Source: an uncultured Candidatus Saccharibacteria bacterium
GTDB taxonomy: Bacteria > Patescibacteriota > Minisyncoccia > UBA6257 > JACOXY01
NCBI GenBank assembly: GCA_964357615.1
Contig: CAYHMC010000003.1
Span: 34,678-98,677 of the forward strand
DNA: 64,000 nucleotides
Reading direction: 5' to 3'
The number at the start of each line of letters is the position of its first letter. The first letter of the stretch is position 1. A model generated the notes under the pieces. It saw nothing but the letters and a program-made list of their open reading frames with translations. It was not told the origin of the DNA and did not search any database. Made by a program: the position numbers and the translations under genes. Positions 1,811-22,943 of this stretch are shown one piece after another.

Positions 1811-3742
1811 ATGGAAACCAAAAACCAACCTCCAAAAAGAATCCCGCCACGAAGACCCGACGAAAATCACGAAACAACAAAAGGCCGAAGACAACCAACT
1901 ACAACAAGAAGAGGCTCAACTCTAGGTCAAAATAATCACCCAGATAGACCTAGCCAAAGCAAAACGCGTGCCCGCCGACCCGCTTTTGGAGATAATCGCT
2001 CTAGACGACCTTCTTTTCGCGCCCCTGGAAGAAAATTTGTTTCGGGAAATGCAAACTCAACTAAAAATATACATAATGACGAAAGCGACTTGCTCCGCTA
2101 CATTCCCCTTGGCGGATTAGAAGAAGTTGGTCGCAATATGTGTTTCTTTGAATATAAGGACGAGATTGTAATCATAGATATGGGAATTCAATTCCCTGAA
2201 GAAGAAACTCCTGGCATAGATTTTATTTTACCGAATATAGAATATCTCGTTCCTAAAGCAAAAAATATAAGAGCTATTGTTCTTACGCATGGCCATCTAG
2301 ACCACATCGGAGCTATTCCATATCTAATAGAAAAGCTAGGCAACCCACCAATTTATACGACCGACCTAACTGCCGAGATGGCTAAAAAGCGCCAGCAGGA
2401 GTTCCCCAATGCTCACAAACTTGATATCAATCTAATTAAAAACCGAGATAAAGTTAACGTTGGAAAATATTTTGACTTGGAATTCTTTGGAGTAGCACAC
2501 ACAATTCCAGAAACAATGGGAATTGTAATTAAAACTCCCGTTGGAAATATTGTACACTTTGCCGACTTTAGAATTGCATACGACGATAACAATGTCGCAG
2601 AAGGCACCGAAGAATATGAACGCATTGGAAAGCTTGGAATTCATTCTTTTTTAATTGACAGCACAAATTCTCAAAAAACTGGTTTTTCAACTTCAGAAAG
2701 AGTGGTTCAAAAAAATCTAGAAGAACTATTTAGCAAAGCAGAAGGCAGAATTATTGTTGGCACATTTTCTTCTATGATAACTCGTATTGCCGAGATGATT
2801 GAAATAGCCCATAAACTAGGCAGAGTAGTGGCAATAAGCGGAAGGTCAATGCAAGAAAATTTACAGATTGCTCAAAATCTTGGTCACATTAAACCACCTA
2901 AGGGCACACTTATTACCCTAAACGACCTTCATAAATACAGAGACAACAAGATTGTAATCCTTTCAACTGGAGCTCAAGGAGAAGCAAATGCCAGCTTAAT
3001 GCGTGTTATCTCAGGCGAGCATAGACAAGTTCAAATTAAATCTGGTGATACAGTTATTCTTTCTTCTTCTGTTATTCCAGGCAACGAAAGAAGTGTTCAA
3101 AACCTAAGAGACAACTTGGCACGCCAAGGTGCTATTGTTTATACTTCTGGACTAATAGATATTCATGCTTCAGGTCATGCACCAAAAGAAGACTTAAAAT
3201 TGGTAATGGAAATTATCAAACCGAAATTTTTAATTCCAGTTCATGGCTATTACTTTATGAGATCGCTCACCGGCATATATGCCGAAGAAGTTGGTATTCC
3301 AAAAGAAAATGTAATTATGTTAGATAATGGTCAAGTTGCAGAAATGAGCCCAGATAAAGTAAAAGTAAGCAATGAACAAGTGCCCGCTTTTTATGTAATG
3401 GTAGATGGCTTGGGCATTGGAGATGTTGGTGAAATAGTGCTTCGCGACCGCAAAATGCTCGCCGCAGAAGGAATGGTTGTTGTAATTGCTACCATTGACA
3501 AACATTCGGGAAGAATATTAAAAAATCCTGACATTATTTCTAGAGGATTTATTTACCTTAAGGATAATGCAGAGATGCTAGATGAAATTCGAAAACGCAT
3601 CAGAGCTATGATTGGACGAATGGGCGAACAACATATTGATGGTGATTACCTAAAAACCTTAATGCGCGACCAAATTGGACAATTTTTGTTTACTAAAACC
3701 CACAGAAGGCCAATGATATTGCCAGTCGTAATAGAGGTTTAG
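1811..3742 (+). CDS. rnj: Ribonuclease J (beta-CASP metallo-beta-lactamase RNase) with ~90 aa Arg/Pro-rich N-terminal extension
   Basis: HGHLDHIG motif (HxHxDH), then LIPVHGYY and the beta-CASP region, with RNase J-like overall order. N-terminus is low-complexity basic: PPKRIPPRRPDE…RRPSFRAPGRK. Confidence 0.9.
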   Translation: METKNQPPKRIPPRRPDENHETTKGRRQPTTTRRGSTLGQNNHPDRPSQSKTRARRPAFGDNRSRRPSFRAPGRKFVSGNANSTKNIHNDESDLLRYIPLGGLEEVGRNMCFFEYKDEIVIIDMGIQFPEEETPGIDFILPNIEYLVPKAKNIRAIVLTHGHLDHIGAIPYLIEKLGNPPIYTTDLTAEMAKKRQQEFPNAHKLDINLIKNRDKVNVGKYFDLEFFGVAHTIPETMGIVIKTPVGNIVHFADFRIAYDDNNVAEGTEEYERIGKLGIHSFLIDSTNSQKTGFSTSERVVQKNLEELFSKAEGRIIVGTFSSMITRIAEMIEIAHKLGRVVAISGRSMQENLQIAQNLGHIKPPKGTLITLNDLHKYRDNKIVILSTGAQGEANASLMRVISGEHRQVQIKSGDTVILSSSVIPGNERSVQNLRDNLARQGAIVYTSGLIDIHASGHAPKEDLKLVMEIIKPKFLIPVHGYYFMRSLTGIYAEEVGIPKENVIMLDNGQVAEMSPDKVKVSNEQVPAFYVMVDGLGIGDVGEIVLRDRKMLAAEGMVVVIATIDKHSGRILKNPDIISRGFIYLKDNAEMLDEIRKRIRAMIGRMGEQHIDGDYLKTLMRDQIGQFLFTKTHRRPMILPVVIEV

Positions 3743-4888: not shown

Positions 4889-5827
4889 TTACGGCTGAAA
4901 TATATCCAAAGTCCTACCTTCTACAGAAAGCTTAACGCTTTTTAGGGTAGGAAATTGTAATAGTGTTTCCTTTATTTGAGCTACTCGCATTGTCATACTG
5001 CAAGATCCACCACCAGATTCTGTTATTGAATTAAAATCTGCGCGCGCTTCTCCGTTAACTATTACTAATGAATTAAGCTTGCTACCAAAAGGAATGCTGG
5101 TAATAAAACCGTCCTTTTTTTCTTCGACAGTAGGACCCTTCAACAATTCACTAATTGCAGCCGTAGCAATTTTCTCTGTCTTTTCAATTACTCTAGTAAC
5201 CAAGGTAACTTCATCACAAGAATTGGCTTCTTGGGTTTTGGTATTATGAAAATATACTTTAACGGGAGTAGTTTCTCCTGTTACTACAAAACTAACTTCA
5301 TTGCTCTTTTGCGCCCAAGGATCAACATAAATTTTATAATTTCCTGGAACTAATTTAAGAAAAGAATCGCACGGCAATCCACTATAAGAGGTGTCGTGAG
5401 AACACAAAGAACTAGCCAAAGTAACTTTTATAAGATTGTCGGTTGAGTCATTACTACCCCTAAGCAATCCTTTTACCCCAGATGCATTTTGAATCCATGC
5501 ATTCTTATCTCCTTCAAATCCAGAAAAATAACATCCCTTGATTTCTAATTTTGTTCCAGCAGTACCTGAATAACTTGAAAGTTGATGTATTATTGGAACA
5601 CTTTCCTCTCCGTCTTTCTCGGGCTCGCAGGGAAGCTCCATGGCGACTGGCGAAGGTGATGTCAAAACCGACAAATTAGGCGAGTTCATTGGGGAGGGTG
5701 CCCCATCTTCAACATATCTAATTGAATTTCTAAGCAAGGCAACGCACACTGAAACTACAGCCAAAACAATGAACATACTAACTACTAAAATATTTACAAA
5801 TCCCTTTTTTTTCATATTATTAAGCAA
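4889..5827 (-). CDS. GerMN domain-containing secreted protein
   Basis: N-terminal TM helix. C-terminal region VKVYFHN…LLKGPT..E…ADFNS…GGSCSMTMRVAQIKETLLQFPTLKSVKLSVEG matches the GerMN consensus pattern. Confidence 0.55.
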   Translation of the reverse strand: MLNNMKKKGFVNILVVSMFIVLAVVSVCVALLRNSIRYVEDGAPSPMNSPNLSVLTSPSPVAMELPCEPEKDGEESVPIIHQLSSYSGTAGTKLEIKGCYFSGFEGDKNAWIQNASGVKGLLRGSNDSTDNLIKVTLASSLCSHDTSYSGLPCDSFLKLVPGNYKIYVDPWAQKSNEVSFVVTGETTPVKVYFHNTKTQEANSCDEVTLVTRVIEKTEKIATAAISELLKGPTVEEKKDGFITSIPFGSKLNSLVIVNGEARADFNSITESGGGSCSMTMRVAQIKETLLQFPTLKSVKLSVEGRTLDIFQP

Positions 5828-5831
5828 ATTT

Positions 5832-6428
5832 TTATTTTATAAATTTAAAAGTAGAGAAAATAATGTTCAGCTCTTGCAATGCTTTATCTGCAATAACCTT
5901 GTCTACTCCAAGGTGTGCATACGCATAGATAGTCTTTCCGCTGAGCTCACCAGCAATCATCATGGCATACCCCAAGGGTATTCCTCGTTCATCTGAACTT
6001 CTAAAATTTATGGTTTGGTATGTTACCCCATTTGCAACAAAATTTCCCCCTTTACATCCTGAGGCTGGATTATTTGGAGTTGCGCACTCAAGTAGACTTT
6101 CTGGAGATCTATCTTCAAACATTATAAAATTAATCCAAAAAAAGCTACCGTCCCCAATGAGCCTCCAATGATAACTGTCGTTTAAAGTCTCTTCGATTTT
6201 AAAAGTTGATGGATACCTAAACTCAAATCCAGCTATTTTATTTAGATATATTTTCCAGCTTGAGGGCTCGGTAGCTAACACTAATGGCGATGGCATACTT
6301 AATCCAGGCTCCATGAGTATATCGGGAATTGCTTTATCTCTTTCTGTGAACATTACATACCCAACCACCCCAACCAAAACTACCCCCAAAACAACTATTA
6401 ATACATTTATAAATCCATTTTGCTTCAT
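5832..6428 (-). CDS. Hypothetical membrane-anchored protein
   Basis: N-terminal TM helix. Third in a run of co-oriented secreted proteins. Confidence 0.45.
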   Translation of the reverse strand: MKQNGFINVLIVVLGVVLVGVVGYVMFTERDKAIPDILMEPGLSMPSPLVLATEPSSWKIYLNKIAGFEFRYPSTFKIEETLNDSYHWRLIGDGSFFWINFIMFEDRSPESLLECATPNNPASGCKGGNFVANGVTYQTINFRSSDERGIPLGYAMMIAGELSGKTIYAYAHLGVDKVIADKALQELNIIFSTFKFIK

Positions 6429-8129: not shown

Positions 8130-9920
8130 TTATTTTAATCCAATCTGTAGCTCATATAACTTTTTATATGAGCCATCTTTAACTTTGATAAGCTCGTTAT
8201 GTGTTCCACGCTCAATAATTTTTCCTTTATCTAAGACTAGTATTAAATCAGCTTTTCTAACTGTGCTCAAACGATGAGCAATAATAAATGTGGTACGCCC
8301 TTCCATAAGTTTTTCGAGTGATTCAGTAATATATTTCTCATTCTTAGCATCAAGTGCTGAAGTGGGCTCGTCTAAAATTAAAATCCGCGGATTTCGAAGT
8401 ATTGCTCTCGCAATTGCAATGCGCTGTTTTTGACCAGCCGACAACCTAATGCCTCTATCTCCAACTCTTTGATTATATTTTTTAGGAAATTTACTTATAA
8501 ATTCATCTGCGTGAGCCATCTTTGATGCCTCGAGCATTTTTTCATTACTCGCACCAAAAGAACCATATTTAATATTATTTTTTATAGTCTCGTTAAATAA
8601 AATTGGTTCCTGAGCAACAACTGCGATAAACGAGCGCAAAGATATAAGGTCGGCTCGCGAGATGTCATGATGATCAATTAAAATTCTTCCTTTTGTTGGT
8701 TTATAATAATATGACATTAAATCTGTAAGTGTAGATTTACCAACTCCTGATTCTCCGACCAAAGCAACAATTTGACCAGATGAAACCTTAAAGGTAATAT
8801 CATGCAAAATTGAATTCTGTCCCCTACCATATTTAAAACTTACATTCTCAAATTCCACATTTCCTTTAATATCAGAAAATACAAAAGCATTGCTTGGTAC
8901 ATACTCTTCCTCTGCTGTTCCTAATATTTTTTCAGACCTCTGAATTGCTATTAAGCCATTTTGTATAAGATCCCAATTTGCCCCAACGCGATAAAAAGGA
9001 CCGAAAATTATAGCAGCGTAGCCATTAAAGGCGGCAAGTTCTCCCAATGTGATTCGCCCACTGCTTACAAAAAACACAGAAATAACAAAAATAGAGAGTT
9101 GTGTAAATGTAACAATTAATCTTTGAGATAAATTAAGGTTTGAAAAAACTTTTATATATTCTGTCCAGTAATGCACTGTTCCATATGTAAAGTTTTTTTC
9201 TAGTTTTCTTTTTTCAAAATTTTCAGCAGTTCCCTGTTTTACCGCAGAAACATTTATTACTGAATCATATGCCTCTCCATATGCCTTGTTGTAGGCTTTA
9301 TTCATTGATTGAAGCACTCCAGTATATTTGGGCGTAACAATTACTATAACTAATAAAAAAATGAAAAGTCCACCAAAAAGCACTGCTGTTAAAATTGGAT
9401 CAATAAAAATTACAATAAAAAAAGCTATAACTACACTAAAAATATCTGGTGCAAGATTTATAATAACTTGACCTATGATATTACTAATTCTTCCCGCAGC
9501 GCGCTCAACACGATTTATAACCTCCCCCATTTTGTGCTTCTTGTGAAATCCAAGCGGAGAATTAAGAAGGTGCGTCATTCCCTCTACAATATAATCGCTC
9601 TCTACTAAGGCATTTATTCTTTCGGACTCAACACTTTTATAACGCTCGGCAAAATCTGTTGTAATTTTAAATATAGCCCAAATAACCAAAAGGGCTACAA
9701 GAGGCGAAACGGGATATCCAAAAAATACAAACGGCAAAACATTTCCAAGAAGAGCATCGAAGTATTTTCCTACTAAATAAGGAACAATTGCGCTACCAAT
9801 AGCAGAAATTACACTTACTACAACTAAAATAACTATCTTTTTTTGATAGGGTTTTAAATATCTAGTAATTACTGTGATTCCATCTTTAAATTCGCTGTAA
9901 GTTATTTTCTTTTTAGCCAT
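8130..9920 (-). CDS. ABC exporter, fused permease/ATPase (MsbA-like)
   Basis: Six-TM N-terminal half. Walker A GESGVGKST, signature LSAGQKQRIAIARA, Walker B ILILDEP. Confidence 0.85.
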   Translation of the reverse strand: MAKKKITYSEFKDGITVITRYLKPYQKKIVILVVVSVISAIGSAIVPYLVGKYFDALLGNVLPFVFFGYPVSPLVALLVIWAIFKITTDFAERYKSVESERINALVESDYIVEGMTHLLNSPLGFHKKHKMGEVINRVERAAGRISNIIGQVIINLAPDIFSVVIAFFIVIFIDPILTAVLFGGLFIFLLVIVIVTPKYTGVLQSMNKAYNKAYGEAYDSVINVSAVKQGTAENFEKRKLEKNFTYGTVHYWTEYIKVFSNLNLSQRLIVTFTQLSIFVISVFFVSSGRITLGELAAFNGYAAIIFGPFYRVGANWDLIQNGLIAIQRSEKILGTAEEEYVPSNAFVFSDIKGNVEFENVSFKYGRGQNSILHDITFKVSSGQIVALVGESGVGKSTLTDLMSYYYKPTKGRILIDHHDISRADLISLRSFIAVVAQEPILFNETIKNNIKYGSFGASNEKMLEASKMAHADEFISKFPKKYNQRVGDRGIRLSAGQKQRIAIARAILRNPRILILDEPTSALDAKNEKYITESLEKLMEGRTTFIIAHRLSTVRKADLILVLDKGKIIERGTHNELIKVKDGSYKKLYELQIGLK

Positions 9921-9971
9921 ATAGCTATTATATAACGAATAACAGCAATTTAGTTACAAAAAAAGACCGCC

Positions 9972-10124
9972 TCAGTTGTTCTGGGCGATCCGGTGAAGTT
10001 CGCGCTTTTCTTGTCTGCGGTCATAGCCGTGCTTTCCTTTCTTAGTGGAATGATATCCACCAGTTTGTCTTGGTAGTGGAACACGCATCATTGCAAGCGG
10101 ATTCTTTGCTTTTACTTTTTTCAC
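9972..10124 (-). CDS. Small basic protein (50 aa, GTG start), GC-rich cassette 1 gene A
   Basis: SD GAAGGAGG sits 4 nt before the GTG start. ORF is MKKVKAKNPLAMMRVPLPRQTGGYHSTKKGKHGYDRRQEKRELHRIAQNN. An intrinsic terminator (GATCGCC…GGCGGTC plus T7) follows the stop. Not in the ORF track (<60 aa). Confidence 0.4.
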   Translation of the reverse strand: MKKVKAKNPLAMMRVPLPRQTGGYHSTKKGKHGYDRRQEKRELHRIAQNN

Positions 10125-10459
10125 TTTTCCTCCTTCGGTAAGTCGTAGCTTTAGCGAAGGTTACCCTTCATTAGTTTTTCTACTAGCTATAGTCTCTCCC
10201 TTTCAAAATCCACATTTAAACATGAACTTTAAAAGAAGCCCGAGGGACAAAACAGAGATGCGATTTCTCTGATGTGTCACTCGGGGTATAAATCGCGCAG
10301 TCCGCATACTTGATTGCAATCAAGTAGTTGCGGTTGACAGTGGTTACCGTGTGAATCTTGCAAAATGCACACAGATGCCTCCACTGCCTAACTCCTCTCA
10401 TTTCATCGCAAGGGTTGGCACGGTTTGGATTGGCTGCGCAACCAACCACCCGTAGATTT

Positions 10460-10714
10460 CTATTTGCGACGCTTGCGACTCTTGCCACCGCCACTCTTCA
10501 ATCCTTGAACCATCATCTGGAAACCTACGTAGATGATCCCAAGAATCACCACGTAGTTCAAAATGTGCTCGAGGAGTGGAGTTATGTGGTTTACAGCCAC
10601 AATTCCAAGTCCCGGAACCACAGAGAGGAACACAAGGACGAGAAACCCAATCGTCCAGAGACCTCTGGGAGGAAAGAAAAGATATCTTCCCCATGCTTCG
10701 AAAAAATCTCTCAT
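10460..10714 (-). CDS. Small membrane protein (84 aa, two TM helices), cassette 1 gene B
   Basis: SD GAGGAG sits 8 nt before the ATG. Two hydrophobic helices and a basic C-terminus. GC-rich codon usage unlike the flanking genes. Confidence 0.45.
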   Translation of the reverse strand: MRDFFEAWGRYLFFPPRGLWTIGFLVLVFLSVVPGLGIVAVNHITPLLEHILNYVVILGIIYVGFQMMVQGLKSGGGKSRKRRK

Positions 10715-11064
10715 ACTCTTTTCTCCTCGCTCAAATTTTTATTTGAGCTGTTATTGGTTTTTGATGTGCTGTCATTGCTTCCTTTCAAAATATTTATTGA
10801 GTTAAATATTTTGAAAGGAACCCGAGAGAGTCGACCGGCAATTTCTTGCTCGGCTCGCTCCCTCGGGAAAACGGGTTTTTCTCCGGCTATAAACCCGAAA
10901 ACGGTTCTGCTTTTTTTTGAGTCCGAGAGGGGGATCGGCCCTTCACAGCTGGCTTCTGCCCTCTCGGTGGTAGGTTTTTGCTGAAAACCTTTCCCCAAAA
11001 CAGCGCGCGCAATCCAGGTCAGGCACCTGGGAGCAGGAAGGATTTGGAGTCGTTTAGCACTCCG

Positions 11065-11298
11065 TTATCCTGCTCGTTCGCTTTGAGTCCGGAATGGACC
11101 CCTCACCCGACCCGGGCGAGCAAGCCTATCGTCCTGAACGAATCGGCATGGCAGCGAACCGCCTACATTCTGCATCGAGTGGCCAAACTCGTATGCAGAC
11201 CTCTGCTGAACACATGGGATTTTCCCCTGTGACCCCGTACCCGGATGGCTGCGCGCGTCCATCTGTACAGGAATTAAGATTTTTCTTCGGTAAGCCAT
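11065..11298 (-). CDS. Questionable small ORF (77 aa), cassette 1 gene C; start lies inside the repeated leader element and has no SD
   Basis: Open frame in GC-rich DNA. The region is full of hairpins and may instead be non-coding. Confidence 0.2.
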   Translation of the reverse strand: MAYRRKILIPVQMDARSHPGTGSQGKIPCVQQRSAYEFGHSMQNVGGSLPCRFVQDDRLARPGRVRGPFRTQSERAG

Positions 11299-11578
11299 AG
11301 CTTTAAACGAAGGCTACCCTAATTTCTGTACAGATGATTTACATACCTACTTAAAAAATTTAGCGAAGAACTTTTCTGTTTCGTCCTGAGCTTGTCGAAG
11401 GACTCATCAGTACGAGCATACACTCGTAGACAGAAAGGAGTTTTAAGGTCTCCTTAAACCCTACGCTGTGGTCTCGCTCATGCTTATCAAAAAGTTTGGC
11501 TAGAACTTTTATGTTCTGCTAATGCAGAACTTTTGCATGAATCCCCACTTACGTCTGCGCAAACGGCCAGAGCAACCC

Positions 11579-11857
11579 TTAACCGATACTCAGGTCAAGT
11601 ATTTGTCCGACGTAATCCTTAACATCAACACCTTGCGGTGGAGCGCCAAGAACCACGTACAGACAACGGTCGCTGTAGGCGGATGACATAGCTCGGAAGT
11701 CTGCGCTAATATTCTTAGCCGCAAGCGTCCGACGCACATGCGCAATCCGCCTCTGGCAGGTAGGACAACCATCCGCTTCGGCTACTTCGAAAAGAATGTT
11801 GCCATTCTCCTCCAGTATCGAGCGCGGAGTTGCCCAGCCTTGCACGCGAACTTGCAT
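11579..11857 (-). CDS. Small CxxC (CPTC) protein, thioredoxin/glutaredoxin-like guess, cassette 1 gene D
   Basis: SD GGAGG sits 6 nt before the ATG, and a 7-bp hairpin (CCTCAGA…TCTGAGG) sits just 5' of the SD. The protein contains GCPTCQ. Confidence 0.4.
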   Translation of the reverse strand: MQVRVQGWATPRSILEENGNILFEVAEADGCPTCQRRIAHVRRTLAAKNISADFRAMSSAYSDRCLYVVLGAPPQGVDVKDYVGQILDLSIG

Positions 11858-12039
11858 AATTCACCTCCTTTCATGCCTCAGAGCCATCTGAGGGTTAGTT
11901 GTGAATTATAAATCCATTCTCGAAGAACTTTCAGAAAACAAAATGTTTTCCTGTTAAAACATTCCAATCTTGAAATGCTTTAACAGAAACCCGAATTTTG
12001 TCTCGGGCGGGACACTCGTTTTTCCGGATAACGAGAAAC

Positions 12040-12273
12040 CTACATCGCGAGCTGGGGCTCCTTACGAACTGGGAGTCCCAGCTGGGCGAGTTCGGCGCGA
12101 ACCTTTTGGACCAGCGGACGGTCCGGAAGATTCACTTGCAAGGTAGCTTTACAGCCCTTGCACTTGCCGACCTGACCCAAGAGAGCAAGACGAATGCCCT
12201 CTCGCGGTGAGCGATGCGGACGATTTCGATGTCCGCATTCCTCACAGTAAACATAGAATGGTTTAAAGAACAT
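12040..12273 (-). CDS. Small zinc-ribbon protein (CxxC…CxxC), cassette 1 gene E
   Basis: SD GGAGG sits 4 nt before the ATG. Cys pairs YCEECGH and KCKGCK are spaced 24 aa apart. Confidence 0.4.
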   Translation of the reverse strand: MFFKPFYVYCEECGHRNRPHRSPREGIRLALLGQVGKCKGCKATLQVNLPDRPLVQKVRAELAQLGLPVRKEPQLAM

Positions 12274-12629
12274 TCGACCTCCGATTTCAACCCTAACCTG
12301 CTATTTCTAGTCAGGATTTTACAGGGCGTGATTCCTTAAGGAGAGACCACAGCAAAAGTTCAAATTACTATTTATAACTATGCTAAACTTTTTTCTATGG
12401 CCTCCCCTAAAGGAGGCGGGAGAGATATGTTTAGGTCTGTTATTTTGTAGTTACGACCAATCATCATATCTGCACCCCATATTTATTTTCTGCGGTCATT
12501 ATACTCGATTTTTATGTATTTGTCAAGTGTCGGTGACAAACCGCTAAAATAAGCCTTATTTACTATATTTTATAAGAAAATTACTCTTTATTACTATGTC
12601 AAAATAGATAGACTTAGTTTTTAATATAC

Positions 12630-13025: not shown

Positions 13026-13787
13026 TTAATTTAATTTCTTCCACAAAAGCTCAAAAAGTGCTCGCATTGAATTCGCAATATCTCTGTCTTCTATTAAAAC
13101 ACCAGCTGACTTATCACGAAAAGCTGAAATACTCATAACATCGTCATAAATAGCTAAATCACAGGTAAACGGAAATTGTTCTACTGGAATAAATCTTGTT
13201 TCGCGAAGCAACGCTTTATTTTCTCTGCCTAAGATATCCCCCTTACTACTAGTGTAAATGAGTCTTGATTTAATACCTTTTTGCACTCGGCGTGGCGCAT
13301 GCTTTTCTGGATGATTAGGAAAAATTTTTAAAATACCATCAACATCTGCAATTGATATAATTTGTTTATTTTTCATCTTAAGAGCTTCGTCCTGCATTGT
13401 TTGCAATCCTTCCTTGCCCTCAAAAAATCTAACCTTGGGACGCGTACCAGAAAGTTTAAATAAATTTGAAAGCTCTGGGAGATTATTTTTTAGTGTTGAT
13501 GCACGCTCTTTAGCCTTAGCATTTTCGTTCTCAACAATTTTTTGTAAATGATCAGGATCTTCAGCCCGGAAATAAGTTTTGCCAGCTCCGCCCTTTTTTA
13601 TAATTTTTTCGAAACTGGAAACAAGCCCCATTTTCATGAGTGCTTCAAGTTGAACATAAGTTGTTGGTCTTTTTACTCCAGCCTTTTTTGCTACCTCATC
13701 TGCCGTAGCGCTGCCAATTTCTAAAAGCGCTAGATATACCCTTGCTTCATTTTCAGATAAACCAATTTTTTTAAGTTCTTCGTGCAT
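13026..13787 (-). CDS. TrmB-family transcriptional regulator
   Basis: N-terminal wHTH LSENEARVYLALLEIGSATADEVAKKAGVKRPTTYVQLEALMKMGLVS, typical of TrmB. Confidence 0.7.
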   Translation of the reverse strand: MHEELKKIGLSENEARVYLALLEIGSATADEVAKKAGVKRPTTYVQLEALMKMGLVSSFEKIIKKGGAGKTYFRAEDPDHLQKIVENENAKAKERASTLKNNLPELSNLFKLSGTRPKVRFFEGKEGLQTMQDEALKMKNKQIISIADVDGILKIFPNHPEKHAPRRVQKGIKSRLIYTSSKGDILGRENKALLRETRFIPVEQFPFTCDLAIYDDVMSISAFRDKSAGVLIEDRDIANSMRALFELLWKKLN

Positions 13788-13822: not shown

Positions 13823-16800
13823 CTAATGACTTTTTAATCCCACCCACACATCGCTTTCTTCGATTTTAGTCTCTATTTCTGCATCAATTTTATTCGTGCG
13901 CTTTAAATTAAGTTTTGTAGCACCCACCTGCTTAATAAATTCTTCACTATGACGTTCAATAATACCTCCGAATTGCTTTGAATCTAAATAGATTTCTATT
14001 TTATTTTTTGGTTGCAATTCAGCTTTTTGTCTTAATTCTTGCACAAGCCTTATAAATTCTCGAAGTATTCCTTCTTCGCGAAGCTCAGGTGTAATTTTTG
14101 TATCTAATTCAACACTCACATCTTTAAGTGTGTCGGAAATTTTTATTTCTTTAACATTAATTTCTTCTTTCAGAATACTAATAAGTTCTTTTTCTTTTAC
14201 AATCTTCGAAGCATCAGATTTTTTAGAAATATAAAGAACCGAAAGTGGTTGTCTAACTTTTATTCCAGCCTCTGCGCGCTTCGCTAATGCTTCGGTTGCG
14301 AGAGATCGCACCCAATGCATATTTTCAAGCAAGTTATTATCAATATGTTTTTTACTTACCACTGGCCAATCCTCAATATGAATTGAATCTTTATGCTCCC
14401 CACTTAAATTCAAAGACTTATAGATTGATTCTCCAAAAAATGGAGCGAATGGGGCCATAAGTTTTGCAATTTCTAAAATTGCAAAGCCCAAAGTTGCCGA
14501 ACAATCCTTAAAATCATTATTATCTTCTGGCCTCTGGAGACGACGACGAGAACGCCTTATGTACCATCTTGATAAATTATCTATCAGTTCTTCAATTGCT
14601 TTTGCTGCATTGCCAACTTCATATTTTTCTAATTCTTCTGTAACTTTCAATATTGTTTTGTTTAAACTTGCCAAAATCCACTTATCTAAAATATGTTTTG
14701 ATTTTAAATTTTTAAATACAGGGATTGGACTCTTATCTGCGTACATTTCATAAAAAACAAAAGAATTATACAAAATATTAAAAACTCTATTTTGAACTTT
14801 TTTAATATCAATTTCATCAAAGTTTTTTGTTTCTCCTGGGGCATTGATTGTATAAAAATACCACCTAATAGCATCAACACCATATTTAGCAATTACATCC
14901 CAGGGATTTACAACATTGCCCTTAGACTTCGACATTTTTTGCCCAAATTTATCATTAATAAGTCCAAGACAAATCACATTTTTAAATGGTGGCTCTTTAT
15001 GTCCCAGTAGCGTCCCAACCGTAAGGAGCGTATAAAACCAACCGCGCGTTTGATCGATTGCTTCACAAATAAAATCAGCTGGGTATGGAAATTCTTTTAA
15101 TCCTAGTCGTCTATCGTCTTTAACCAATGGATTACTTTTTTTGTATTTATTATCAACTGCAAACGGATAATGGGCTGATGCAAGTGGCATTGCGCCAGAA
15201 TCAAACCAAACATCGGCAACTTCTTTTATTCGCATCATCTTTCCATTACACTTTTTACATTTTAATACTACTTCATCTATGAAGGGGCGGTGCATATCAA
15301 GCTCGCCCTGTGTGTTATATGGCCAATTATTTAATTTTACTTTACGCGACTCACCAACCCGAATATAATCCATAGCCAACATTTCTTCATTAGAAAAATT
15401 TTTCATAGCACCCTCCATCATCCACAGTGGATCTCCGTGACTAACTATTAGAATGCGCTTATTAACATGGAGCTTATTAATTTCTCTAATAAATCCAAAT
15501 ACTCTCTTTTTTATATCAGTTAAATTTTCTCCCCCAGGCGGTGTTTTTGTAAATTCTTCAGACGGTGAATCAAAGAAAGCTTTGTGTTCTTTGGTTGGTT
15601 TTTCATTGAATATTCCAGCATTTGCTTCTTCTATTCTTTTATCTACAATAACTTTTATATCTGATGCTTTTCCTATTTCTTTGGCTAGCTCTAGTGCGCG
15701 CTTATAGGGAGATGAATAAATCACATCAATTTTTCCCTTTAACTTTTTAGCAATTTCGATTGCTTCTTTTTTACCTTTTTCTGTAAGTGGTTCTATTTTC
15801 CCCTTTGGGCCAGATGCCACAATATCCTTAACATTGTGTAATGCTTCTGTATGGCGCTGTAGCATAAATTCATTACCATAATAATCATGCTCGTTTAACT
15901 CCGATAAACCTTGTATTACATTTTCAATTCCACAATCCTCACAAGACCAAACAGGAAGCGGTGTACCCCAATAACGCTGTCTTGAAATAGCCCAATCTTT
16001 TGCTTCTTTAATCCATTCTCCAAAACGCCCTTCTTTTATGTGCTCTGGTATCCAATTAATTTTTTTATTGGAAGATAGAAGTTGTGGTCGGAGCTTAGAA
16101 ACTTCTATAAACCATGCTGTTCTAGCAAAATAAATAAGCGGAGTAGAACATCTCCAGCAAAAAGGATATTCATGTTCTTGTTTCTCTGACTTATACATCA
16201 ATCCCCTTTTTTCTAAGTCAGCAATGATATCATTGTCTGCGCTTTTGATAAATTTATGCGCTCCTGGGAATCCAGCTACCATATTACCATCGTCATCAAC
16301 TGTCACTGGAATATTTTGATATGAAAAACTATCCACAGATGATTTAATCAAATTAAAATCATCGACACCAAAAGCTGGCGCGATATGAACAAAACCTGTG
16401 CCATCTTCTACTAAAACAAAATCAGCGCTATAGACGCGATAAGAATTATCGCTTGATAGCTTATTGTGCGAAGTTTTATACAATGGTTCGTATTCAAGAC
16501 CAATCAATTTTTTACCAGATATTTTCTCGACAGCTTCTATGCTGTAATCTTCTTTCGTGGGAGGAGGATTTATAGACCAAATATATTCCAGCTTAGCGCC
16601 AGTCGAAAAAGATTTTTTTATAGCGTACTTTGTATATGTAACTCCAGAATTAACTGCGATAGCAACATTAGCTGGAAGTGTCCATGGCGTTGTAGTCCAA
16701 ACCAATAAGTATTCGTTTGTTTTATTTTTTATTTTGAACTTTATGTAAATTGATGGGTCTTTAACTTTTTTATATACACCAGGTTGACCCAACTCATGAC

Positions 16801-17368
16801 TCGCTAAAACCGTTTGACACCTTGGACAATATGGAACAACTTTATAATCTTTGCGTAATAAACCTTTATTTGATATTTGCGACAAAACCCACCAAAGCGA
16901 TTCAATATAATAATTTTCATAAGTAGCATAGGCGTTTTTTAAATCCAACCAAAATCCTATACGATTAGTCATTTTTTCCCACTCATCTTTATATTTCCAA
17001 ACAACTTCTTTAGCTTTTTGATTAAATAATCCTATGCCGAACTGTTCAATATCTTTTTTGTTCTTAATTCCTAATTCTTTTTCAACTTCTATTTCCACGG
17101 GGAGGCCATGAGTATCCCAGCCAGCACGGCGCGGAACATAATAACCACGCATAGTTTTATATCTAAGTATAATATCTTTAAAAACACGGCCCAATATATG
17201 ATGAATACCTGGCCTTCCATTGGCTGTTGGAGGACCTTCGTAAAAAACAAATCTTTCTCCCTTCTCTTTGGTCTTTAAAGTTTTCTCGAAAATTTGATTC
17301 GTTTTCCAATATTCTAAGACTTTTTCTTCAATGTCTGCTAGTTTAAATTCTTTTAGATTTTTTAACAT
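13823..17368 (-). CDS. ileS: Isoleucyl-tRNA synthetase (type 2) carrying an inserted histidine-phosphatase-like domain
   Basis: PPTANG…IHHILG (HIGH region), the CP1 editing domain, KMSKS, and zinc knuckles WSCEDCG and CKKCNG. About 185 aa between the knuckles carry LQRHTE, SSPYKRALELA and IVSHGD (RHG / SHG phosphatase motifs). Confidence 0.9.
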   Translation of the reverse strand: MLKNLKEFKLADIEEKVLEYWKTNQIFEKTLKTKEKGERFVFYEGPPTANGRPGIHHILGRVFKDIILRYKTMRGYYVPRRAGWDTHGLPVEIEVEKELGIKNKKDIEQFGIGLFNQKAKEVVWKYKDEWEKMTNRIGFWLDLKNAYATYENYYIESLWWVLSQISNKGLLRKDYKVVPYCPRCQTVLASHELGQPGVYKKVKDPSIYIKFKIKNKTNEYLLVWTTTPWTLPANVAIAVNSGVTYTKYAIKKSFSTGAKLEYIWSINPPPTKEDYSIEAVEKISGKKLIGLEYEPLYKTSHNKLSSDNSYRVYSADFVLVEDGTGFVHIAPAFGVDDFNLIKSSVDSFSYQNIPVTVDDDGNMVAGFPGAHKFIKSADNDIIADLEKRGLMYKSEKQEHEYPFCWRCSTPLIYFARTAWFIEVSKLRPQLLSSNKKINWIPEHIKEGRFGEWIKEAKDWAISRQRYWGTPLPVWSCEDCGIENVIQGLSELNEHDYYGNEFMLQRHTEALHNVKDIVASGPKGKIEPLTEKGKKEAIEIAKKLKGKIDVIYSSPYKRALELAKEIGKASDIKVIVDKRIEEANAGIFNEKPTKEHKAFFDSPSEEFTKTPPGGENLTDIKKRVFGFIREINKLHVNKRILIVSHGDPLWMMEGAMKNFSNEEMLAMDYIRVGESRKVKLNNWPYNTQGELDMHRPFIDEVVLKCKKCNGKMMRIKEVADVWFDSGAMPLASAHYPFAVDNKYKKSNPLVKDDRRLGLKEFPYPADFICEAIDQTRGWFYTLLTVGTLLGHKEPPFKNVICLGLINDKFGQKMSKSKGNVVNPWDVIAKYGVDAIRWYFYTINAPGETKNFDEIDIKKVQNRVFNILYNSFVFYEMYADKSPIPVFKNLKSKHILDKWILASLNKTILKVTEELEKYEVGNAAKAIEELIDNLSRWYIRRSRRRLQRPEDNNDFKDCSATLGFAILEIAKLMAPFAPFFGESIYKSLNLSGEHKDSIHIEDWPVVSKKHIDNNLLENMHWVRSLATEALAKRAEAGIKVRQPLSVLYISKKSDASKIVKEKELISILKEEINVKEIKISDTLKDVSVELDTKITPELREEGILREFIRLVQELRQKAELQPKNKIEIYLDSKQFGGIIERHSEEFIKQVGATKLNLKRTNKIDAEIETKIEESDVWVGLKSH

Positions 17369-22117: not shown

Positions 22118-22579
22118 ATGATGCAAGATAAAACAGGAAACATTTTAAGCATAAACAAAAAAGCTTCATTTGATTATGAAATCATTGAAACATATGTGGC
22201 TGGCGTGCAACTTTTAGGATTTGAGGTTAAGTCTATTCGAAAAGGATCAGCGTCTTTAATTGGCGCTTTTGTTGTAGTTCGTGGTGGTGAAGTATATTTG
22301 CTAAACGCCAATATTCCCCCATATCAATCAAACAATTCTCCAAAAGATTATGAATCAACCCGTAGCAGAAAACTACTTCTCAAGAAATCAGAAATTGCTG
22401 AGTTAATTGGTAAAACAGAAAAGACTGGCTTGACACTTGTGCCACTTAAGTTGTATAATATGGGCAGTAGAATTAAGTTACAAATCGGCTTAGCGCGCAA
22501 TAAAAAGAAACATGACAAACGTGCTTCCATAAAGAAGAAAGATGTTGAGCGCGAAGTTGGGCGTAGACTTAAAGGATAA
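22118..22579 (+). CDS. smpB: SsrA-binding protein
   Basis: Typical SmpB sequence (KKASFDYEIIETYVAGVQLLGFEVKSIRKG…). The tmRNA gene follows immediately. Confidence 0.9.
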   Translation: MMQDKTGNILSINKKASFDYEIIETYVAGVQLLGFEVKSIRKGSASLIGAFVVVRGGEVYLLNANIPPYQSNNSPKDYESTRSRKLLLKKSEIAELIGKTEKTGLTLVPLKLYNMGSRIKLQIGLARNKKKHDKRASIKKKDVEREVGRRLKG

Positions 22580-22583
22580 AAAT

Positions 22584-22931
22584 GGGGATGAAAGGCCTCG
22601 ACAGGCTACTAACCTTAAAAATTGCAAGCAGAGATGTGAAATCTCTTAAAACATTCACAAAAGAATAAGTGCAAACTCATTCAACAAACAACCGGCCTTA
22701 GCATTTGCATAAGACCCATCGACGCTACTTACGCCTAATCGGTTGATCGTCGGTGTTAAATTATTAGGCTCTGTTCCCTACTCCTGCGGAGGGAATGAAT
22801 ATTGAGCGGGAAAGTGTTGTGTGCTTGGCCTCCTGGCACTTGGCACATGACACTTAAAATAATGTCAGGATAAGCTTGTAGATATTTTTAATTTTACGGC
22901 CTGGACGGCGGTTCAAATCCGCCCATCTCCA
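22584..22931 (+). ncRNA. ssrA: tmRNA (SsrA)
   Basis: 5' GGGGATGAAAGGCCTCGACAGG. Tag reading frame GCA AAC TCA TTC AAC AAA CAA CCG GCC TTA GCA TTT GCA TAA gives ANSFNKQPALAFA. 3' tRNA-like end GGCGGTTCAAATCCGCCCATCTCCA. Confidence 0.85.
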
Positions 22932-22943
22932 CAAACTAAAAGA

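Follow-up and report, generated by a model that had tools for sequence, protein, structure and literature searches.

A dispersed family of short hairpins with a fixed core and a covarying stem in a Saccharibacteria island and in viral contigs

We analysed a 64,000-nt stretch (hereafter the window) of contig CAYHMC010000003.1, from an uncultured Candidatus Saccharibacteria bacterium, for a repeat of about 35 nt that occurs twice on its minus strand. The two copies, 1 and 2, belong to a dispersed family of short imperfect-palindrome hairpins with a fixed core and a covarying stem. Other members are found in related bacterial loci and in uncultivated phage-like and giant-virus contigs. The repeat is real and non-random. 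One copy lies directly 5' of the Shine-Dalgarno (SD) sequence of a gene for a 50-residue basic protein, as an earlier note on this DNA had observed. As a local feature the repeat is minor, since it is not a riboregulator of that gene. We put at roughly even the chance that the element works at the DNA level, as a single-stranded-DNA hairpin similar to repetitive extragenic palindromes (REPs) or palindrome-associated transposable elements (PATEs), of the IS200/IS605-RAYT (Y1 HUH nuclease) kind.

The repeat and its wider family

Read on the minus strand, copy 1 is GGGTAACCTTCGCTAAAGCTACGACTTACCGAAGG (10166 to 10132) and copy 2 is GGGTAGCCTTCGTTTAAAGCTATGGCTTACCGAAG (11319 to 11285). The two sequences given in the earlier note are indeed present in the window; its coordinates are displaced, by 9 nt for copy 1 (10141..10175) and by 1 nt for copy 2. 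The copies lie in direct orientation, ~1.15 kb apart, and are 86-90% identical with an indel. Repeat finding returned a shared 21-nt core at 10133-10153 and 11285-11305, with 90% identity and a spacing of 1152. A degenerate 21-mer with at most 3 mismatches matched at two places only in the 64 kb, both of them the copies, with 0.00 matches expected (100 shuffles). Copy 2 is no assembly artefact, because three independent assemblies from Hainich H41 groundwater in ENA (L001, L002 and L004) carry it, at 99.9-100% identity. The 3629-nt contig L001 has its 3' end at window position 10168, 2 nt upstream of copy 1 and at the foot of a GUAA hairpin that overlaps this copy (10132-10166). Such a break would fit an assembler misled by the repeat.

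A scan of IMG/VR with the pattern CCTTCGCN{0,1}TAAAGCTAYGG found 41 loci, on uncultivated phage-like contigs and on contigs of giant-virus metagenome-assembled genomes (MAGs). They span 30-71% GC (39-71% for the uncultivated phages) and often hold several copies. The 4-5 bases on either side of the viral 18-mer are mutually complementary and differ from locus to locus. These flanks pair in 87% of cells, against 29-53% with slid partners, and the covariation score was reached by none of 500 shuffles. Single pairs of this basal stem switch among C-G, U-A, G-C and A-U. A covariance model of the family, R1, gave 102 hits in 494 kb. Many of them are divergent extra copies, with about 4-6 in some loci of 10-15 kb. 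In the window it reports two copies, both in one small island of genes and structured RNA; the match in copy 1 covers 10144-10159 (22.2 bits, E 0.0019).

The family consensus was taken from non-ascertained copies. It consists of a variable basal stem, the 5' core strand C-UUCGC, a variable apex (UAAA, CAAG or an extra stem-loop) and the 3' core strand GCUAYG-G, often followed by CAAG. The core pairs as C-G, U•Y, U-A, C•U, G-C and C-G, that is, as a 6x6 helix in which two Y•Y mismatches are fixed. The whole element is an imperfect palindrome of about 30-35 nt. Both window copies and every pattern-selected copy have the UAAA (TTTA) apex, as do about half of the non-ascertained ones.

The family has an unusual host range and appears to be undescribed. 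Rfam gave no match at either window copy (E<=5) and none at 11 viral loci carrying the hairpin (E<=0.05; RAGATH motifs, pistol, hatchet and twister-sister included), and the repeat sequence is printed nowhere in the literature searched. Cultured phages and plasmids gave only short chance-level matches, mostly inside genes. In the viral contigs, the long-form motif pattern had 0 matches and the 92-residue protein family of the Saccharibacteria island (see below) no member.

On the AT-rich giant-virus MAG contigs (L023, L027, L035, L037, L039, L043, L049, L055, L059) the stem is always AUAUU/AAUAU, and the hairpin is followed by AAUC(A/G)GAAAAC-N20-24-GUUUUCCUCCA. Because stem and downstream sequence are constant there, this hairpin is part of a longer multi-copy repeat unit. 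L039 has an additional variant hairpin, CCUUCGGCUAACGCCUUCGG. Inverted pairs occur occasionally (L029/L036, L040).

Gain, loss and inversion at orthologous sites

Homologues of the 92-residue and 50-residue proteins encoded in the island led us to related loci. The TrmB-family regulator that flanks the island yielded no relatives in genome contigs when used as an anchor. The islands compared are window 9950-12530, L005 1242-6284, L018 1264-6269 and L016 7650-9560; the last, a Candidatus Saccharibacteria MAG contig, carries a relative of the 92-residue gene. L005 is syntenic with the window (TrmB, island, ABC transporter). L018 runs from TrmB through the island to the small basic gene and ends before any ABC transporter is visible. 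In the window and related loci, the core TCGY(N0-2)TAAAGCTW occurs 8 times in 116 kb, with 0.22 expected, always in island DNA.

The repeat comes and goes at these sites. At the TrmB-promoter site it is sense in L018, inverted in L005 and missing in the window. The leader of the small basic gene carries it in the window and in L005. In L018 a copy lies 90 nt upstream of another open reading frame (ORF). The L016 copy is upstream of a promoter and has other arms (CCUGCG/CGCAGG), and that of L010 is inverted, upstream of the 92-residue gene. After the stop codon of the membrane-protein gene, L018 alone has a diverged copy, which shows the basal stem of both window copies. The two core copies of L018 share their basal stem with the L005 leader copy at non-orthologous sites. 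No consistent insertion target or target-site duplication was recognisable at filled and empty sites. Apart from the inverted L005 copy, the island transcripts contain no conserved antisense or kissing partner for the loop.

Copy 2 sits at the tip of a conserved long hairpin. Judging from the aligned tips, it is a lineage-specific insertion: the tip is GGG-AAAAA-CCC with a 5-nt loop in L005, bears an extension of ~95 nt in L018, and only in the window contains copy 2, as an insert of 32 nt. At both junctions there is microhomology to the loop that received it: GGG to the left, an A-run to the right. The two window copies agree in a derived basal stem (GGUARC/GYUUACC), and 4 nt of their 3' flank (GAAG) are the same, which makes one a DNA-level duplicate of the other. 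On these sequence features, the best reading of copy 2 is duplication, at the DNA level, of a copy 1-type element. A rival reading is a local duplication without function: 32-35 nt of leader would have been carried into the hairpin loop once, by replication slippage or template switching, and the wider similarity would be due to common descent or chance. Microhomology at both junctions, the co-copied GAAG flank and the presence of two copies only in the window agree with this. Such an account is improbable, as it cannot account for a core that recurs unchanged, with covarying stems, in 41 unrelated viral loci and at several island sites of other lineages.

The earlier note had also suggested that the copies are direct repeats, as at target duplications or att-like sites, around an insertion of ~1.1 kb that brought in the gene between them (gene B, for a membrane protein) and a hairpin-rich spacer. 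Their direct orientation, their 1.15-kb spacing and the cassette content that varies among relatives are in keeping with this view. However, the structured RNA between the copies is present in L005 and L018, gene B is present in L018, and neither locus has copy 2. The DNA between the copies is ancestral, and they therefore do not bracket an insertion. Moreover, 86-90% identity with an indel is unlike fresh att sites or target-site duplications, and the relatives carry more, not less, DNA between gene B and the small basic gene (~2 kb more than the window). We consider the chance of a bracketed insertion close to negligible.

Fold of the copies and access to the Shine-Dalgarno sequence

The earlier note proposed that each copy folds through a CCUUCG/CGAAGG helix. 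In the predicted ensemble of the copy 1 leader this helix has a pair probability of 0.0; CCUUCG pairs with an upstream UGAAGG across a GUAA loop, with probability 1.0. In copy 2 the proposed helix reaches -3.2 kcal/mol, against -8.4 for the family register and -10.0 for the minimum-free-energy structure, which is in the same register. In the family-consensus fold each window copy combines the GGUARC/GYUUACC stem with the core, and the hairpin does not include the SD. The basal stem of copy 1 is weakened in this register (-2.7). A C-to-U change in copy 2 retains a G•U pair on the sense strand only.

The SD downstream of copy 1 has a mean pairing of 0.35, versus 0.42 when the upstream sequence is shuffled. 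The corresponding values in the L005 leader are 0.59 and 0.59. In the leaders of homologous small basic genes, SD pairing is 0.77 in L011 and 0.67 in L018. A stable anti-SD/SD helix above background and kept in orthologues was not found, given a helix probability of 0.0 in copy 1 and an L005 leader equal to its shuffled control. Sequestration of the SD by the repeat is thus excluded by the predicted folds.

A duplicated cis-regulatory leader, whose CCUUCG/CGAAGG hairpin would hide the downstream SD, had been put forward on the grounds that the two arms are complementary and that the 3' arm overlaps the SD region of copy 1; the fairly paired SDs of L011 and L018 could be added. We now find it highly improbable. 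The UGAAGG-GUAA hairpin takes up CCUUCG, SD pairing does not exceed that of shuffled controls, and the family fold uses other partners. Copy 2 has neither an SD nor a gene. Most family members are not leaders of related genes: the genes downstream of the copies are unrelated, and some copies lie after stop codons, upstream of promoters, or inverted.

DNA-level or RNA-level element

Gain, loss and inversion at orthologous sites, mixed orientation and the lack of a G•U excess favour a REP- or IS200/IS605-like DNA hairpin. Relative to flanking genes, 14 copies are sense and 13 antisense. In ~700 cells of the covarying stem we counted 8 G•U and 16 A•C, which sets it apart from RNA helices under selection on the sense strand. 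Basal stems are shared within subfamilies at non-orthologous sites, and this points to copy-and-paste behaviour. The outcome that the earlier note had named as contrary to its own proposal, many dispersed copies unrelated to gene starts as in REPs or miniature inverted-repeat transposable elements, is essentially what we found; a residual start-codon polarity at the phage loci departs from it.

For the acting strand, the mobilising enzyme and any function, we infer the following. The structured strand would be the window plus strand, where the apex ...GC-T[TT]A-GC... matches CTT(T/C)AG of the hairpins that TnpA binds. The copies would multiply in trans or through template switching; copy 2 has landed in the loop of the conserved long hairpin, beside the GGG/AAAA microhomology. 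Any effect on the 50-residue gene would be a by-product and would not pass through a hidden SD.

Several facts weigh against this DNA-level account. At the phage-like loci 12 copies are sense and 5 antisense, and an SD with a start codon follows within 45 nt in 12 of 34 cases on the sense strand but in 2 of 34 on the reversed one. The island copies are mostly sense. Among the best 25 families listed, no Y1 transposase (Y1_Tnp) or TnpB was seen for 200 ORFs within 2.5 kb of viral copies or for the 55 ORFs of the window. There are only 2 copies in 64 kb, both in the island, unlike genome-wide REPs. The UAAA/CTTTAG apex is missing in about half of the divergent copies. The 5' GT[AG]G foot of REPs is not a feature of the family, whose kept flank is the 3' CAAG.

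The polarity at phage-like loci and the mostly sense orientation in the island speak for an RNA gene-junction element. In that case the fixed internal loop of the sense hairpin, two Y•Y mismatches around a U-A pair, would be the binding or cleavage site of a trans-acting factor. Such a factor would be a protein that binds RNA or an RNase specific for double strands, and it would determine the 5' end, the stability or the translation of the cistron downstream. Duplication would spread the copies, with copy 1 as an operator for the 50-residue gene and copy 2, on its hairpin tip, as a second site or decoy. RNA hairpins that bind proteins typically combine a conserved internal loop with helices that vary at base and apex, the island transcript is packed with RNA elements (hammerheads, a structured domain, a further motif), and the C-to-U change in copy 2 retains its G•U pair on the sense strand only. 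On the other side, G•U is no more frequent than A•C, copies are inverted at orthologous sites, and the giant-virus-like loci have 8 antisense copies to 2 sense. The downstream genes are unrelated and there is no Rfam family. The 18-nt core is identical in phages, giant viruses and bacteria, which would moreover call for a universal partner. We regard the RNA-level account as somewhat unlikely. The DNA-level account, which we rate higher, and the RNA-level one are not mutually exclusive, because transcribed REPs can affect mRNA.

A broader and somewhat unlikely possibility is that the core C-UUCGC...GCUAYG-G is the recognition module of an undescribed system. This could be a family of single-stranded-DNA mini-elements, mobilised in trans and exchanged between giant viruses, phages and bacteria of the candidate phyla radiation (CPR), or a gene-junction RNA motif read by a conserved factor. 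If so, the Saccharibacteria island, with its hammerheads, ~250-nt RNA, second motif and swappable cassettes, would be a habitat in which such elements drive cassette turnover.

The island and its structured RNAs

The locus that holds both copies is compact, conserved and rich in RNA elements, belongs to a reduced genome and appears not to have been described (Table 1). From 5' to 3', this island of ~2.5 kb contains the promoter, a 77-residue zinc-ribbon ORF, the 92-residue ORF, an RNA-like motif, a hammerhead, the 77-nt hairpin with copy 2, a structured ORF-poor stretch, gene B, a second structured spacer, copy 1 and the 50-residue basic ORF. It is flanked by the TrmB-family regulator and the ABC transporter, and all these genes are on the minus strand. 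Flanking genes have diverged to ~68% identity, yet the island keeps its high GC; this points to selection on RNA structure and not to a recent import. Pfam and PHROGs searches gave nothing significant for the island ORFs.

Table 1 Coordinates of the repeat copies, the island and neighbouring features (window positions unless a locus is named)
Feature	Position	Strand	Remarks
Copy 1	10132..10166	-	3' end abuts SD (GGAGG, 10133-10129) of 50-residue gene
Copy 1, family-register hairpin	10137-10165	-	basal stem GGUAA/UUACC; core CUUCGC-UAAA-GCUACG
Copy 2	11285..11319	-	in apical loop of conserved long hairpin
Copy 2, family-register hairpin	11289-11318	-	basal stem GGUAGC/GC(U)UACC; core CUUCGU-UUAAA-GCUAUG
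Island of small genes and structured RNA	9950..12530	-	GC 45-57% in a ~34% GC genome
Perfect sigma-70 consensus promoter	12498..12526	-	TTGACA-17-TATAAT; island head; kept in L005, L016, L018
92-residue small protein gene	11579..11857	-	CxxC; 11 homologues, 61-100% identity
RNA-like motif after 92-residue gene	11468..11548	-	GUGGGGAUYC-P2-P3(loop UAGCCA)-GAUAA-P2'-GCGAGACCAC
RNA-like motif elsewhere	L005 2850-2925; L007 ~445-515; L010 ~905-985; L013 ~520-615; L016 ~9360-9455; L018 ~3000-3095, 5845-5915		
Type III hammerhead ribozyme	11373..11436	-	RF00008; ~50 nt upstream of copy 2
Other hammerheads	L005 ~2945-3008; L018 ~3113-3175, ~5510-5562; L006 207-261, 1794-1848		between small island-family genes
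Conserved long hairpin, 77 nt	11260..11336	-	arms CATCTGTACAGRAATTA / TAATTYCTGTACAGATG; 17-nt inverted repeat, 94%
Closed multi-helix RNA domain, ~250 nt	11005..11256	-	directly 3' of long hairpin; non-coding
Perfect 18-bp AT-rich hairpin	10779..10820	-	100% complementary; between structured RNA and gene B
Gene B, 84-residue small membrane protein	10460..10714	-	good SD; between both copies; exact match P0012
50-residue basic protein gene	9972..10124	-	directly downstream of copy 1
AT-rich hairpin module	10225-10265, 10779-10820, 11354-11380, 11489-11540, 11905-11934	-	similar in L005, L007, L010, L016
TrmB-family regulator	13026-13787	-	island flank
ABC transporter	8130-9920	-	island flank
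IleRS	13823-17368	-	1181 residues
smpB	22118-22579	+	
tmRNA	22584-22934	+	tag ANSFNKQPALAFA; directly after smpB

The hammerhead has the CUGAUGA...GAAA core, a GUC triplet at the predicted cleavage site and three stems, with stem III open. It scores 44.6 bits (E 9e-8), 3.9 bits below the gathering score of 48.5; the two L006 hammerheads, with 47.1 and 46.5 bits, also stay below that cut-off. The core is invariant and complete in every copy, and stem I changes are compensatory in L005, L006 and L018. One L018 hammerhead has CUGAAGAG, with A at a variable core position. The Rfam scan did not report the L005 hammerhead, although its core and stems are intact by eye and in the alignment. A literature search on Saccharibacteria and hammerheads found nothing relevant.

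Hammerhead, long hairpin and the RNA 3' of it are kept in the window, L005 and L018. With copy 2 at its tip the long hairpin has a folding energy of -32.1 kcal/mol (z -6.3). The adjacent RNA domain is closed by a long-range helix, GCGCGCAG.../...UGCGCGC. The ORF-poor stretch as a whole, 576 nt, reaches -250.5 kcal/mol (z -9.07), and the spacer between gene B and copy 1 has z -4.5. Structured RNA extends to ~10770 in the window, has counterparts at 3227-3540 in L005 and 3346-3690 in L018, and precedes a small membrane-protein gene. No Rfam family matches the domain. The region includes a reading frame, 'ORF C', that the earlier note had suspected of being non-coding, and the alignment bears this out. 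L005 and L018 lack its ATG, which the inserted copy 2 supplies; between the three aligned sequences we counted 21 compensatory pairs, and indels break the frame. On this comparison 'ORF C' is not a gene.

The RNA-like motif is known from 8 examples. Its P1 alternates between GUGG/CCAC and GCGG/CCGC, and its P2 covaries among CCAUGC/GCAUGG, CCCGC/GCGGG and CCUGC/GCAGG. It is not in Rfam. In L018 it trails genes other than the 92-residue one.

Promoter, leaders and trailing RNA elements are kept in the island, while the ORFs are swapped between relatives. L018 lacks the 92- and 77-residue genes and has a 123-residue ORF between the leader of the former and the trailing motif. In L005 the slot of gene B holds an unrelated 91-residue membrane ORF, and three extra genes are present. 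A recurrent intergenic module (C-rich arm, AAAGTTYT, AT-rich centre, TTTTGAAAG, G-rich arm) forms long AT-rich hairpins between cassettes; at 11934-11905 it overlaps a promoter-like site.

The gene B homologue in L018 is 61% identical over 69 residues. A profile search gave a weak, sub-threshold MntP-like match for gene B. For the 50-residue protein a word-index search returned no homologues; an exhaustive HMMER search, run afterwards, identified an uncharacterised family of 49-112 residues with 28 cluster representatives at E<=1e-3 and the consensus RIPLPxQTGGxHSTKKGKRGYDRK. Members are encoded at L005 ~6080-6253, L018 6001-6219 and L011 497-778. The L005 orthologue has a 1-nt frameshift, an assembly error or real. 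Pfam, NCBIfam and PDB gave no match for the family. The stretch KKGKxxYxRK is similar to the tail of ArfA, though not significantly. Kinship with ArfA (PF03889) was considered and rejected: the query has no Pfam hit, one of 29 family members reached E 0.013, and hhalign gave a probability of 2% with only KKGKxxYxRK aligned.

Outside the island the window is ordinary host chromosome, with Pol I, IleRS, RuvB/RuvC, SmpB and tmRNA, RNase J and others. The IleRS ORF is unusually long, and by eye an internal segment resembles a histidine-phosphatase/phosphoglycerate-mutase-type domain (…LQRHTEALHN…SSPYKRALELA…SHGDPL…). With smpB and tmRNA, this genome has trans-translation alongside the ArfA-like-looking small basic protein.

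Comparison with known systems

REPs are imperfect palindromes of 30-40 nt in which stem mismatches are required for RAYT binding and stem variation is compensatory (PMC3333891). The present repeat resembles REPs, their BIME arrangements and the RAYT system in being an imperfect palindrome with fixed stem mismatches, in having stem positions that vary yet stay complementary, in its intergenic location in both orientations with occasional inverted pairs, and in presence/absence polymorphism between relatives. The definition of REPs includes a conserved 5' GT[AG]G at the hairpin foot (PMC6006769). In our repeat GTAG occurs within the stem on the complementary strand, or by chance in GGTAGC, and not as such a foot. 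Further differences are its confinement to two copies in one island of the 64 kb, the absence of any RAYT among the families listed nearby and its occurrence in phage and giant-virus contigs.

The IS200/IS605 family is known in bacteria, phages and giant viruses. The hairpins bound by TnpA of IS608 and ISDra2 have an apical CTT(T/C)AG with a T-A closing pair, a C-G pair next to it and a TT loop (bioRxiv 10.1101/2024.12.22.630000). The reverse complement of our repeat, CCRTAGCTTTAGCGAAGG, is likewise an imperfect palindrome with a CTT(T/C)AG apex, in likeness to IS608, ISDra2 and PATEs. On that strand, however, the stem has two purine•purine mismatches and not one extrahelical T, and about half of the divergent copies lack this apex. 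Between the window copies lie structured RNA and the 84-residue membrane ORF rather than a left-end/right-end (LE/RE) pair around tnpA/tnpB; beside the viral copies, neither TnpA nor TnpB was among the families listed and no LE/RE arrangement was found. The repeat presumably also shares 10 identical nucleotides (TAGCTTTAGC) with the IS608 hairpin.

Copy 1 and its L005 counterpart, each immediately 5' of an SD, and the anti-SD-like CCUUC bring to mind leaders that sequester the SD, such as riboregulators and RNA thermometers. The repeat differs from them in that the sequestering helix is unpopulated, SD accessibility equals that of shuffled sequence and most copies lie outside leaders.

The PeSLs of T4-type phages are mobile regulatory stem-loop cassettes, and T7 early mRNA has RNase III processing hairpins. 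Without being related to them in sequence, lacking an attached promoter and being shorter than RNase III substrates, our repeat has in common with these systems the repeated hairpins at small-gene junctions of hyperplastic regions or polycistronic transcripts, the cassette shuffling and the position upstream of ribosome-binding sites.

Set beside these systems, the repeat is ordinary in kind, a short dispersed palindromic repeat. Its invariant mismatched core is common to Saccharibacteria-like genomes, uncultivated phages and giant-virus contigs. If it is a REP/IS200-like DNA hairpin, this mechanism would reach CPR bacteria as well as viruses that infect prokaryotes or eukaryotes, and the hairpin could serve as a marker of gene flow between them. 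If it is an RNA element, it would represent a new and widespread gene-junction motif.

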